A stretch of 64,000 nt of DNA, taken from the sequence record PP236086.1. The stretch is one strand, 5' to 3'. This DNA comes from Enterobacter phage ZX14. The position numbers were made by a program, and so were the translations under genes. Shown here in pieces: positions 5,738-48,297 of the stretch. The notes below the pieces were generated by a model. It saw only the letters and a program-made list of their open reading frames with translations. It ran no database searches and was not told the DNA's origin. Every line of letters begins with the position of its first letter. The first letter of the stretch is position 1.

Positions 5738-6093
5738 TCTGCACCTAATATAAAGAGAATTTCACTGCCACGTTTATCGAATCTACCTCTCATAGATACG
5801 ATATCTTCATTATACCATAGATTTTGTGCAGCAATTTGTTTCAACAATTCGACATGACTACACAAGACTTTAACGATACGACCTTGACGTTGACCGTACC
5901 CGTCTAGCCAAAGACGGAAGCCATTATCATTGCTTTGGATGTTTTTAATATCGCAATCAATTTCATATAGGCCGTGAGGAATAGTATTGAACAAATGAGG
6001 GTTACGTTTGTACCCATCAATGGTCGGAACTGGCCCTTGGACCACTAAAGCCCATTTCTTTTGGACCGGGTCTACATCAATAAGGCGAATCAT
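5734..6093 (-). CDS. hypothetical protein inserted between td and frd
   Basis: ORF chosen from the internal ATG preceded by a GAGGT Shine-Dalgarno. The six-frame ORF extends to 6144. No T4 counterpart at this junction. Confidence 0.45.
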   Translation of the reverse strand: MIRLIDVDPVQKKWALVVQGPVPTIDGYKRNPHLFNTIPHGLYEIDCDIKNIQSNDNGFRLWLDGYGQRQGRIVKVLCSHVELLKQIAAQNLWYNEDIVSMRGRFDKRGSEILFILGAE

Positions 6094-7507: not shown

Positions 7508-7602
7508 TAGCCTTGCCTCATTCCACATTTAAAACATTTACCACCGAGTGACCATAGCCCGGCGCCACAATACTTACATTCCCAGTCACTTAGAATCCAC
7601 AT
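7507..7602 (-). CDS. small C4 zinc-ribbon protein (31 aa)
   Basis: MWILSDWECKYCGAGLWSLGGKCFKCGMRQG has CxxC…CxxC. Not in the ORF track because it is under 60 aa. Confidence 0.35.
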   Translation of the reverse strand: MWILSDWECKYCGAGLWSLGGKCFKCGMRQG

Positions 7603-46376: not shown

Positions 46377-46407
46377 GCAAAAAAAAAAGGACTCCCGAAG
46401 GAGTCCT
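46377..46407 (-). terminator. rho-independent terminator after the Soc-fusion gene
   Basis: Minus strand AGGACTCCTTCGGGAGTCCT followed by T10. Confidence 0.75.
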
Positions 46408-46411
46408 ATAA

Positions 46412-47926
46412 TTAGACAATTGTATCTTTTAAGAAGGATGCAAACAGAGAACCACGACGAGCATAACCAGCATCGTTAGGATGCACAAGGTCATGCGAAG
46501 TGTATTCTTCAGCATTTTCTTTAGTAATCCAGCCTTGGACGTCAACAAACTTCAGTGAATGTTTTTCAGCCTGTTCCATTACAGCCGTACGAATCTTATT
46601 AATTGCTTCTGTTTCACCTTGCGGCGTAGCAGGACCAATTAAAATGACCGGGACTGTAGGGAAATTGGTTTTAACAATTTCAAGAGCAGCGTCCATATTA
46701 GTCTTAAGTTCTTCTACTCTACCTGCTACAGAATCATTATAGCCTAAGCTAAAGATAATATAATCAGGAACTCTAGACAATGTCAGCAATTTATTGGTAA
46801 CACGAGTTGCTGGGACCCTTTCACCGGTAGAGGTCCAGCCAGAACCACCAATACCATCTGCTAATCCGTCTACGCCTAAATGGTCACACATAATACGGAA
46901 ATCGTTAAAGCTTGGCTGAGTTGCTTCGGTACCGAAGGTATATGAATCACCCATCTGCCATACGAATTTACGAGTACGTGGAGGCTTGGACAACGTATCA
47001 GAAGATGAACCTAAGTTCAAGCCGCCGAATGCACTGTTAACGCCTGCTAATGAATATGAGCGTGATTTACGTTCACCGCCCCAATCAACTAAATAGACAA
47101 ATGAAGAACCAGATGAATCAGTAGTTATGCTCTGTGTACCGACTCTTAACCCATCAACATAAAGCTCACAAATAGTATTAAGACCTGCTAATTTAATTTC
47201 AAATTTAGGAGAGTCAGTAACCCAGTTAGCTCTAAATTGTGTGCCATTTCCGATACCATTCCCACGATAACCAGAAGTAGAATCTTTTACATCAGAACCC
47301 CAATAATCGAAAGCAGTATCAGTACGTTCTTTAGAAACACCTGCATACATAGATGTTGCGTTAGTACCACGATAAGTAAGGTTGAATGTTGCACCTGTCC
47401 CTGTCGTTATATTAGCACCATTGTTTCCATTACCCGCTTCAGTAGCACAAGGGTTCGTAGGAGGAGTTGTGTATACACCACCTTGACGGACAGAAGCGGT
47501 TGTTATAGCACCTTCAGCACCTACTGCAGTAACACGAATTAATGTTGGCGCTGATTTAACTCCACCAGAAACATGAATAATATCACCAAACTTATAACCT
47601 GTACCACCATCAACAATTACTGCCGTATCTAAAGCACCACTACCTTTATAAAGATTCGTTGCAGGAGCAGGAGAAATAGGAGCAAATGGAGGGATAATTT
47701 CAGGAAGTTCTGGGATAATTGGTGGTATTACTTCGCCAAACATTACTTCGATATTATATTTTTGCCATTCTACATCCTGTCCTTTTTCAAAGACTGTAGA
47801 ATATAGTGGTTCTTCACTTAAAGAAAGGTTATAAAAAGAGCCTGCTATTTTATGAGCATTTGAATACACCGTAAAATAAACTGATACTTCTATACCCGAT
47901 CTTAACTTCAAATTTATATATTTCAT
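46412..47926 (-). CDS. Soc-domain fusion protein with C-terminal SGNH/GDSL hydrolase domain
   Basis: 504 aa. The N-terminal ~65 aa are homologous to the adjacent Soc (IEVSVYFTVYSNAHKIAGSFYNLSLSEEPLYSTV vs VEVSVAFKVYSDAHRIAGAHYQIFPSEEPAYADV). A Pro-rich linker and Gly/Thr/Asn-rich beta-like middle follow. The C-terminus has GDSYTFG (GDS block) and DLVHPNDAGY (DxxH). Confidence 0.8.
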   Translation of the reverse strand: MKYINLKLRSGIEVSVYFTVYSNAHKIAGSFYNLSLSEEPLYSTVFEKGQDVEWQKYNIEVMFGEVIPPIIPELPEIIPPFAPISPAPATNLYKGSGALDTAVIVDGGTGYKFGDIIHVSGGVKSAPTLIRVTAVGAEGAITTASVRQGGVYTTPPTNPCATEAGNGNNGANITTGTGATFNLTYRGTNATSMYAGVSKERTDTAFDYWGSDVKDSTSGYRGNGIGNGTQFRANWVTDSPKFEIKLAGLNTICELYVDGLRVGTQSITTDSSGSSFVYLVDWGGERKSRSYSLAGVNSAFGGLNLGSSSDTLSKPPRTRKFVWQMGDSYTFGTEATQPSFNDFRIMCDHLGVDGLADGIGGSGWTSTGERVPATRVTNKLLTLSRVPDYIIFSLGYNDSVAGRVEELKTNMDAALEIVKTNFPTVPVILIGPATPQGETEAINKIRTAVMEQAEKHSLKFVDVQGWITKENAEEYTSHDLVHPNDAGYARRGSLFASFLKDTIV

Positions 47927-47952
47927 ATTGGTTCCCTTTGTTTACAAGTTAT

Positions 47953-47960
47953 ATTTATTT
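47953..47960 (-). promoter_or_regulatory. putative late promoter variant AATAAATA for the Soc-fusion gene
   Basis: Minus-strand AATAAATA, 27 nt upstream of the ATG. Confidence 0.35.
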
Positions 47961-47974
47961 AATGCTGTGTGTAA

Positions 47975-48002
47975 ACAAAAAAAGGACTCCCGAAGGAGTC
48001 CT
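47975..48002 (-). terminator. rho-independent terminator after soc (identical copy)
   Basis: Same 20-nt hairpin AGGACTCCTTCGGGAGTCCT followed by T7. Confidence 0.75.
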
Positions 48003-48006
48003 TTAA

Positions 48007-48255
48007 TCAACCAGCAGGTTCTTCAGGTTCAGCTGGAACACCGACAAACATCGCGGCATTCTTGGTAGCCCAATCTTCTGCAGTTTCAACTACATCTGCA
48101 TAAGCAGGTTCTTCAGACGGGAAAATCTGATAATGTGCACCAGCAATACGGTGTGCATCAGAATATACTTTAAAAGCAACAGAAACTTCTACACCTTTTA
48201 CTTCACCAGATGGCAGAGTATGATCGAAAGTTTTGATATTTACATAACCGCCCAT
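48007..48255 (-). CDS. soc: small outer capsid protein Soc
   Basis: 82 aa. GYVNIKTFDHTL…VSVAFKVYSDAHRIAGAHYQIFPSEEPAYADV matches T4 Soc. Confidence 0.85.
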   Translation of the reverse strand: MGGYVNIKTFDHTLPSGEVKGVEVSVAFKVYSDAHRIAGAHYQIFPSEEPAYADVVETAEDWATKNAAMFVGVPAEPEEPAG

Positions 48256-48289
48256 AATGGACTCCTTTTAGTTGGATTGATTACAGGCG

Positions 48290-48297
48290 TATTTATT
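48290..48297 (-). promoter_or_regulatory. putative late promoter variant AATAAATA for soc
   Basis: Minus-strand AATAAATA, 35 nt upstream of the soc ATG. Confidence 0.35.

Follow-up and report, generated by a model that had tools for sequence, protein, structure and literature searches.

Does a T4-like phage display an enzyme on its own head by way of the small decoration protein Soc? This question is raised by a gene on a 64,000-nucleotide (nt) stretch of DNA from Enterobacter phage ZX14 (sequence record PP236086.1), the whole of which is referred to as the window throughout this text. The gene is situated between canonical soc and genes of the early region. Its product is not a small single-domain Soc protein of approximately 80 amino acids (aa), but a protein of 504 aa, in which four further segments follow a Soc-like N-terminus. 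An earlier sequence-only reading had described the open reading frame (ORF) at 46412-47926 as opening with a Soc fold that aligns with the soc gene at 48007-48255, continuing through a Pro-rich linker and a beta-like middle, and ending in a hydrolase of the SGNH/GDSL type. The strand was left unstated there; all genes concerned are encoded on the minus strand.

We refer to the product as the fusion protein and to everything beyond its Soc module and linker as the cargo. The reading that we favor, with a probability of roughly 0.55, is that the fusion protein would be a capsid-anchored glycan esterase decorating the phage head. Capsid display is favored because an orthologous cargo is carried by a Hoc anchor in sister phages and because the Soc module is under purifying selection. 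In the following, we consider the anchor, the cargo, the distribution of both among phages, and the origin of the gene, before the favored reading is weighed against its alternatives. Coordinates of all features are collected in Table 1.

The Soc Module

Over the first approximately 75 aa, the fusion protein is 40% identical to the neighboring Soc protein (BLASTP, E = 2e-14), relative to which it has a deletion of 9 aa in the N-terminal loop. The Pfam model Soc (PF16855) covers aa 10-58 with E = 1.2e-9 (39 bits, against a gathering cut-off of 27), the Soc family 1715 of PHROG matches aa 11-61, and T4 Soc (5vf3_O) matches the fusion protein by sequence in a phmmer search (E = 6.5e-8). Conservation columns were taken from an alignment of 34 Soc sequences, and all 12 columns that are invariant in this alignment are kept in the fusion module. 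The opening of the ORF had thus been read correctly from the sequence.

For structure prediction with AlphaFold2 (AF2), the Soc module (aa 1-69) and the full-length protein were modeled separately; a joint MAFFT alignment scattered the Soc rows along the long protein. The model of aa 1-69, built with the 34 Soc sequences, reaches a predicted local distance difference test score (pLDDT) of 81.6. When this model was compared to the PDB with Foldseek, the only significant matches were T4 Soc and RB69 Soc, which took the top four places with template modeling scores (TM) of 0.68-0.75. Soc of the T4 capsid (9mkb_BN) is matched with a root-mean-square deviation (rmsd) of 1.3 Å and a TM of 0.74, and RB69 Soc (3ig9) with a TM of 0.75; 5vf3_O was matched as well. 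Modeling of the N-terminus had been named as a check of the sequence-only reading, and the predicted fold is the tadpole-shaped fold of Soc.

A metagenomic variant (contig L007), whose protein is 85% identical, keeps the order of soc followed by the fusion gene. Between the window and this variant, the 66 codons of the Soc module show 14 nonsynonymous and 32 synonymous differences. Since the nonsynonymous divergence (dN) amounts to 0.094 while the synonymous divergence (dS) is saturated, the Soc module is under strong purifying selection.

In the Soc alignment, the linker of the fusion protein starts at the very point at which the variable, evidently exposed C-terminal tails of canonical Soc proteins set in. 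These tails are rich in Pro, Gly or acidic residues, vary in length from 0 to 20 aa (e.g., in P0093, P0126, and P0129), and represent natural short extensions at the same point. One further Soc protein of 97 aa (P0085, encoded on a 173.5-kb contig) shows an internal duplication of 15 aa, with SDAHRIAGAHYQIFP occurring twice, which is either real or an assembly artefact.

A hidden Markov model search with the Soc profile in 1.84 billion representative proteins yielded 20 matches, among which the one convincing long protein represents the family described here. A word-indexed search for Soc returned proteins of 71-98 aa only. P0145 (884 aa) was considered as a second natural Soc fusion and rejected, as it belongs to the secreted, repeat-rich proteins of bacteria (Bacteroidetes type). 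Its match to the Soc profile (E = 3e-5, distributed over five stretches) is probably spurious and driven by the repeats.

Linker, Cargo Domains, and Catalytic Residues

The passenger located C-terminal to the Soc module has a computed mass of 46.5 kDa. It begins with the Pro-rich linker; the string IPPIIPELPEIIPPFAPISPAP quoted for it in the sequence-only reading corresponds to aa 67-88. The linker resembles that of a Hoc-anchored homologue, P0003. PHROG family 9703, annotated as 'head decoration', matches aa 69-503 with E = 7.4e-168.

The full-length AF2 model was computed from an alignment of 48 cargo homologues and shows pLDDT values mostly above 90 over aa 80-504. The beta-like middle of the earlier description is recovered as two units, a beta domain at aa 93-190 (pLDDT above 90) and a beta jelly roll at aa 191-315, and the SGNH domain at aa 316-504 follows with values of approximately 85-97. 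In a comparison of the family profile with the PDB, the residues from approximately 93 to 190 match domain I of the T4 tail-sheath protein gp18 (gp18 residues 78-185, E = 7e-5), and PHROG 32129 matches aa 80-159. The likeness of this first cargo domain to gp18 domain I suggests an exposed 'decoration' domain common to sheath and head proteins.

Jelly roll and SGNH domain are aligned jointly, over approximately 350 columns, to esterases of carbohydrate esterase family 2 (CE2; 2wab and 2wao), to SsfX3 (3skv), and to Est2A (3u37), with TMt values of 0.60-0.70 in Foldseek. For the CE2 structures 2wab, 2wao, 4xvh, and 2waa, E-values against the full-length model range from 1e-12 to 4e-11. The peptidoglycan O-acetylesterase Ape1 is also found among these two-domain matches, as is Est2A, an acetyl-xylan esterase. 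For the three-layer alpha/beta/alpha fold of the SGNH domain, Foldseek gives TMt values of 0.70-0.80 with many SGNH structures, among them TesA. The Pfam model CE2_N has no match in the fusion protein, and its match in the CC31 homologue is weak and below threshold (E = 0.063). The cargo is therefore built like a CE2 enzyme, yet we do not file it as a member of this family.

Both sequence blocks pointed out in the sequence-only reading are present, GDSYTFG at aa 326-332 and DLVHPNDAGY at aa 479-488, and the Pfam model Lipase_GDSL_2 (PF13472) matches aa 325-490 over its full length with E = 4.7e-17. The residues of SGNH blocks I (GDS), II (G), III (GxND), and V (DxxH), namely G326-D327-S328, G363, N397, and D479 together with H482, are invariant in the 48 homologues. 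Hence the alignment of the Ser-His-Asp triad, the other check named beforehand, shows the triad and the oxyanion residues throughout. This invariance argues for catalysis, and hydrolase chemistry of the cargo is likely.

Distribution and Hoc-Anchored Orthologues

Enterobacter phage vB_EclM_Q7622, a Kanagawavirus, and the window are approximately 94% identical. The fusion protein is found at 97.6-99.6% identity in the Enterobacter phages IME523, Q7622, CIP9, and Entb_45, and the GenBank labels given to it in these four genomes are lipase, virion structural protein, hoc, and GDSL esterase.

Beyond this group, a homologue of the cargo (residues 68-503, 50-56% identity) is encoded in CC31, PG7, PEi20, S13, and approximately 60 other records; CC31p007, for example, is 51% identical to the cargo over 433 aa. 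In these CC31/PG7-type proteins, the N-terminus aligns to the capsid-binding domain of T4 Hoc with 42% identity (E = 3e-16). In sister phages, the orthologous cargo is thus mounted on the second capsid-decoration anchor. The Hoc-type gene is located elsewhere in the genome, between topoisomerase gene 39 and 39.1. Among the genomes listed, each contains a single copy, either of the Soc type or of the Hoc type, and none contains both. Neither similarity to the Hoc domain, nor a remnant of the Hoc-anchored gene, nor a canonical hoc was detected in the fusion protein or in the window.

In a neighbor-joining tree computed for the cargo, the Soc type branches from within the Hoc-type clade. Bootstrap support reaches 100% for the clade of both types together; monophyly of the Hoc type by itself is recovered in only 2% of the replicates. 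The nearest cargo relative of the Soc type is the S13-like P0003 (58% support), which also has the most similar Pro-rich linker. From the nesting of the Soc type we conclude that Hoc is the ancestral anchor and that the Soc anchor is derived.

In T4, Hoc binds one site at the center of each hexamer, which amounts to 155 sites, and Soc binds 870 sites between hexamers. The close relative Q7622 retains a full Ig-type Hoc of 487 aa, and a move of the enzyme to Soc sites would end its competition for Hoc sites. The same genome (L004, 9805-14020) contains three consecutive coding sequences labeled 'major head protein', apparently gp23 and two gp24-like vertex paralogues. This set could influence the choice of capsid interfaces open to a variant Soc module.

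More distant homologues of the cargo are proteins of 450-620 aa from enterobacterial genomes, with 40-50% identity. Some of them carry the tail-fiber N-terminal domain PF08400 or Mtd_N; P0017 and P0036 are of this tail-attachment type and lie in tail-fiber loci. The gene of a Salmonella homologue belongs to a lambdoid tail module, in which it comes directly after gpJ and between phage_tail_N genes. Fold matches in BFVD consist of phage tail fibers and SGNH proteins. On Salmonella contig L005 (13370-15717), the lambdoid tail module with the cargo homologue of 451 aa is accompanied by partition genes of the SopB and ParA type, and a phage-plasmid is suggested by this combination.

Cassette Boundaries and Transcription Signals

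Two identical 20-nt hairpins with a UUCG loop, AGGACTCCTTCGGGAGTCCT, flank the fusion gene on the minus strand (46388-46407 and 47983-48002). Each of them lies 4 nt past a stop codon and is followed by a T-run; their folding energies are -14.1 and -16.7 kcal/mol, with z-scores of about -4.2. The pair had been noticed in the sequence-only reading, and it is unique: a third copy of the hairpin was absent from the 64-kb window with up to 3 mismatches allowed, the chance expectation being zero. The two terminator copies form a 34-nt direct repeat with 94% identity, which bounds the cassette.

Kosakonia phage 305, a member of the same genus, has the empty site. Its soc gene is followed by one terminator copy and then by the downstream gene, and both flanks match the window. 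The unit of 1,595 bp, composed of promoter-like motif, gene, and terminator, is therefore a presence/absence cassette. In this phage (L009, 1804-1880 and 2706-3356), which has no fusion gene, we also observed a homing endonuclease between the dCTPase and MazG-like genes that is absent in the window.

According to the sequence-only reading, the terminator was carried along with a duplication of soc. The empty site in Kosakonia phage 305 confirms a cassette with the duplicated terminator at its boundaries, but the Soc module is not a recent tandem copy of its neighbor. Its distance to all Soc proteins is about equal, with 46-48% identity to the neighboring Soc and 35-49% to the others, and it contains a T4-type insertion of two residues (GQDVEW) that is absent in the neighbor. 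Furthermore, there is no similarity to the neighboring gene at the DNA level beyond the 34-nt terminator repeat, and the cargo goes back to a Hoc-anchored ancestor.

A comparison of 46412-47926 with L007 (6001-7509) reveals a mosaic pattern of divergence. The SGNH domain is 99% identical with a dS of 0.20, whereas identity amounts to 69-86% across the Soc module, the linker, the beta domain, and the jelly roll, where dS ranges from 0.9 to saturation. This points to a recombination breakpoint near aa 316. In L007, the terminator after canonical soc (5924-5955) has diverged in stem and loop, and the one after the fusion gene (7514-7533) is the hairpin of the window. As only the soc-side copy has diverged, the two terminator copies do not always evolve together.

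A late-type element had also been assigned to the fusion gene. The motif AATAAATA is indeed found upstream of its start codon as well as upstream of soc, and an ATAAATA core is found at the same place upstream of the fusion gene in L007. An enrichment of the motif was rejected, since the window contains 4 copies versus 6.8 expected. Two of the 4 copies are located on the coding strand upstream of soc-type ATGs, and it is this position alone that is suggestive of late promoters, which would fit late transcription. The Shine-Dalgarno sequence of the fusion gene, AAGGGA, is weaker than the strong AAGGAG of canonical soc, a hint that Soc may be made in excess over the fusion protein.

Table 1. Features of the fusion locus in the window; positions refer to the 64,000-nt stretch.
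Feature	Position	Strand	Details
Soc fusion gene (predicted esterase)	46412..47926	minus	504 aa, 54.2 kDa, pI 5.4
Soc module, aa 1-66	47729..47926	minus	Pfam PF16855, phmmer, AF2 and Foldseek
Pro-rich linker, aa 67-92	47651..47728	minus	IPPIIPELPEIIPPFAPISPAPATNL, 9 Pro
Beta domain, aa 93-190, gp18-domain-I-like	47357..47650	minus	AF2, profile match, PHROG 32129
Beta jelly roll, aa 191-315, like CE2 N-terminal domain	46982..47356	minus	AF2 and Foldseek
SGNH/GDSL hydrolase domain, aa 316-504	46415..46981	minus	Pfam PF13472, model positions 2-178 of 178
Ser328 codon	46943-46945	minus	invariant, 48 homologues
Gly363 codon	46838-46840	minus	invariant, 48 homologues
Asn397 codon	46736-46738	minus	invariant, 48 homologues
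Asp479 codon	46490-46492	minus	invariant, 48 homologues
His482 codon	46481-46483	minus	invariant, 48 homologues
Intrinsic terminator 3' of fusion gene	46378..46407	minus	8-bp stem, UUCG loop, T-run
Weak ribosome-binding site of fusion gene, AAGGGA	47933-47938	minus	upstream sequence
Late-promoter-like AATAAATA of fusion gene	47952..47959	minus	25 nt upstream of fusion ATG
Intrinsic terminator 3' of canonical soc	47974..48004	minus	identical 20-nt hairpin
Canonical soc	48007..48255	minus	82 aa; Pfam Soc E = 1.5e-19; PHROG 1715
AATAAATA before canonical soc	48290-48297	minus	34 nt upstream of soc ATG

A Proposed Capsid-Anchored Esterase and Its Alternatives

If the fusion protein decorates the head, its N-terminal module would dock at Soc-type sites between the major-capsid-protein hexamers of the expanded capsid, where it would compete with canonical Soc from the adjacent gene. 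The Pro-rich stalk of approximately 26 residues would exit from the exposed Soc C-terminus and keep the 44-kDa cargo off the shell. Within the cargo, the CE2-like jelly roll probably binds glycan, and Ser328-His482-Asp479 would form the triad of an SGNH esterase. Its most likely activity would be the removal of O-acetyl, or other small acyl, groups from a bacterial surface polysaccharide, i.e., capsule, O-antigen, or exopolysaccharide. Such a deacylation would help the bulky head to cross these layers or to avoid sticking to them. In terms of origin, the cargo of a Hoc-anchored esterase of T4-like phages would have moved onto a Soc anchor, giving a late-gene cassette with a duplicated soc terminator. 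We count the location directly after soc, with a late-promoter-like motif and a terminator of its own, an arrangement conserved in the 85% identical variant, as a further point in favor of display. The tail-fiber anchors of more distant homologues, the unchanged affinity of engineered Soc fusions for T4 capsids, the proven activities of virion SGNH tail proteins, and the CE2-like architecture with its invariant catalytic residues are counted in its favor as well.

Several points weigh against this reading. In the fusion module, 5 of the 16 nearly invariant Soc positions are changed and two more are deleted with the 9-aa loop, and the conserved Soc motif YQxFPSE reads YNLSLSE. Due to this change and to the loss of the loop, the binding site or the affinity of the module may differ from those of Soc. 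The model of the Soc module was built on a Soc alignment, such that its fold match depends on sequence homology. In the full-length model, aa 1-72 have pLDDT values below 50, as alignment depth is lacking there, and this model is consequently uninformative on contacts between Soc module and cargo. A passenger of 46 kDa may be sterically limited at the trimeric Soc sites, and the top structural match of the cargo, SsfX3, is an acyltransferase. Literature searches yielded no virion proteomics, cryo-electron microscopy, or binding data on the fusion protein or its Hoc-anchored homologue; the homologue is not listed in the ECLFM1 proteomics paper, and the gene is not mentioned in the genome papers of CIP9 and Entb_45.

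The altered positions and the missing loop would suit a protein that is virion-associated but placed off the canonical Soc sites, either at other capsid positions, e.g., interfaces near the vertices that are left empty by Soc, or attached via its gp18-domain-I-like domain. An intact soc with a stronger ribosome-binding site co-exists with the fusion gene, aa 93-190 resemble an exposed sheath domain, and Soc is known to fill the various sites of T4 heads to different degrees (PMC9958956). Nevertheless, we regard such a placement as unlikely, given that the invariant Soc columns are all kept, that the predicted fold lies closely on capsid-bound T4 Soc, and that the loop is also absent in two canonical Soc proteins of 71 aa. 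Moreover, gp18 domain I is a surface protrusion and not a known attachment module. We assign a slightly smaller chance to a soluble late enzyme outside the virion, which would be freed at lysis and strip acyl groups from surface polymers or debris, e.g., preventing the trapping of progeny, with the Soc part as a leftover or as a folding or solubility tag. The literature searches gave no data that place the protein in particles, and GenBank labels include a plain 'lipase'; however, the clear purifying selection on the Soc module and a junction exactly at the exposed Soc C-terminal tail disagree with this view, and relatives of the cargo are consistently found on virion anchors, be it the Hoc capsid-binding domain, tail-fiber N-terminal domains, or Mtd_N.

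It is improbable, in our view, that the cargo is, in place of a hydrolytic esterase, an acyltransferase or mainly a glycan-binding adhesin, the latter acting as a Hoc-like 'environment sensor' of mucus or of bacterial surfaces. Ig-type Hoc is thought to act via adhesion (PMC10385173), the active site of CE2 enzymes is known to serve for binding as well (title of entry 2w9x), and SsfX3 as the best structural match would be compatible with acyl transfer. Against this stand the invariant catalytic blocks, the unavailability of an acyl donor outside the cell, and the esterase activity of related SGNH proteins from phage tails.

Going beyond a single head-decoration esterase, we tentatively propose a broader view, for which we see somewhat less than an even chance. 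T4-like phages may use their two dispensable head anchors as interchangeable sockets, and the esterase would have moved from Hoc, with at most 155 sites that are shared with Ig-type Hoc, to Soc, with at most 870. The whole head would thereby become catalytic, with tens to hundreds of O-acetylesterase copies remodeling the glycans of capsule, biofilm, or mucus, and a receptor-destroying or path-clearing function would be exerted by the capsid and not by the tail.

Engineered T4 display relies heavily on Soc, both for vaccines and for enzyme immobilization, and the existence of a natural fusion would mean that evolution has reached the same design. The native Pro-rich stalk and the trimmed Soc module could be copied into engineered constructs. 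The fusion protein and its Hoc-anchored orthologue form a matched pair, a natural experiment with one and the same enzyme on two different capsid sockets. The question whether phage heads do more than protect DNA, e.g., by carrying enzymes that act on glycans of the host or the environment, becomes testable in this way. The gene may also be relevant to the host range of therapeutic Enterobacter phages such as CIP9, IME523, Q7622, and Entb_45, and to how they penetrate biofilms.

Comparison with Known Systems

Natural fusions of Hoc to an enzyme and tail-mounted SGNH esterases are already known, and the Soc-anchored form appears to be new. The sequence-only reading had called this kind of natural display undescribed. 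In our literature searches, no description of a Soc-anchored enzyme was found; the claim has to be narrowed, though, as the gene is present in four GenBank genomes and the Hoc-domain-GDSL protein of PG7 (511 aa) was noted by Fokine et al. in 2023 as possibly serving 'to functionalize the capsid surface' (PMC10385173).

These Hoc-GDSL proteins (PG7, CC31p007, and PEi20 'hoc'; PHROG 9703; Karamvirus/Kanagawavirus) share with the fusion protein an orthologous linker, beta domain, jelly roll, and SGNH domain. They also have the same general layout, an N-terminal capsid-decoration anchor followed by an enzyme, in T4-like phages of Enterobacteriaceae. The difference lies in the anchor and in the locus: the Hoc-GDSL proteins have a Hoc anchor and are encoded at gene 39/39.1, whereas the fusion protein has a Soc anchor and is encoded directly after soc.

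To canonical Soc (5VF3/7VS5; RB69 3IG9; PF16855), the N-terminal module is related by homologous sequence and the same predicted fold. The soc gene next door is likewise of late type, shares the promoter-like motif of the fusion gene, and ends in an identical terminator hairpin. In contrast to canonical Soc proteins of approximately 80 aa, the fusion protein comprises 504 aa with a large C-terminal passenger, lacks 9 aa of the loop, and reads YNLSLSE at the conserved motif.

Tail-mounted SGNH esterases, such as G7C gp63.1 and the fibers of Klebsiella prophages, have an SGNH catalytic domain and likely the same chemistry, O-deacetylation of surface polysaccharide. For virion SGNH tail proteins, esterase or deacetylase activity has been proven in the case of Klebsiella prophage receptor-binding proteins (PMC13123978) and of G7C gp63.1, an O-antigen deacetylase that is cited in the same paper. 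Proteins of 450 aa from enterobacterial prophage tail loci are direct homologues of the cargo with 41-50% identity. However, tail-mounted esterases are attached to tail or baseplate, are encoded in tail-fiber loci, and act at adsorption, while the N-terminus of the fusion protein is Soc. With a head anchor, far from the baseplate, the role of the fusion protein in infection must differ from theirs.

The CE2 esterases, represented by CtCE2 of Clostridium thermocellum (2WAB/2WAO) and by Est2A, show the same combination of jelly roll and SGNH domain (Foldseek E = 1e-12 to 1e-9, TMt up to 0.70). Sequence identity is limited to 13-17%, and a significant CE2_N match is missing in the fusion protein. 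Furthermore, the CE2 esterases are bacterial or fungal plant-cell-wall enzymes without a virion anchor.

Engineered T4 Soc display resembles the proposed arrangement in that the passenger is attached to the Soc C-terminus and high-copy display on the head is achieved. Soc fusions engineered at the C-terminus or the N-terminus bind T4 heads with unchanged affinity, and passengers larger than approximately 30 kDa lower the copy number, e.g., to approximately 300 for 90 kDa (PMC3012670). In the laboratory, display on Soc has been achieved for enzymes, among them PNGase F (PMC3012670; PMC6424964). In contrast to these constructs, the fusion protein is natural and evolved, is encoded beside wild-type soc, and possesses a dedicated Pro-rich stalk.

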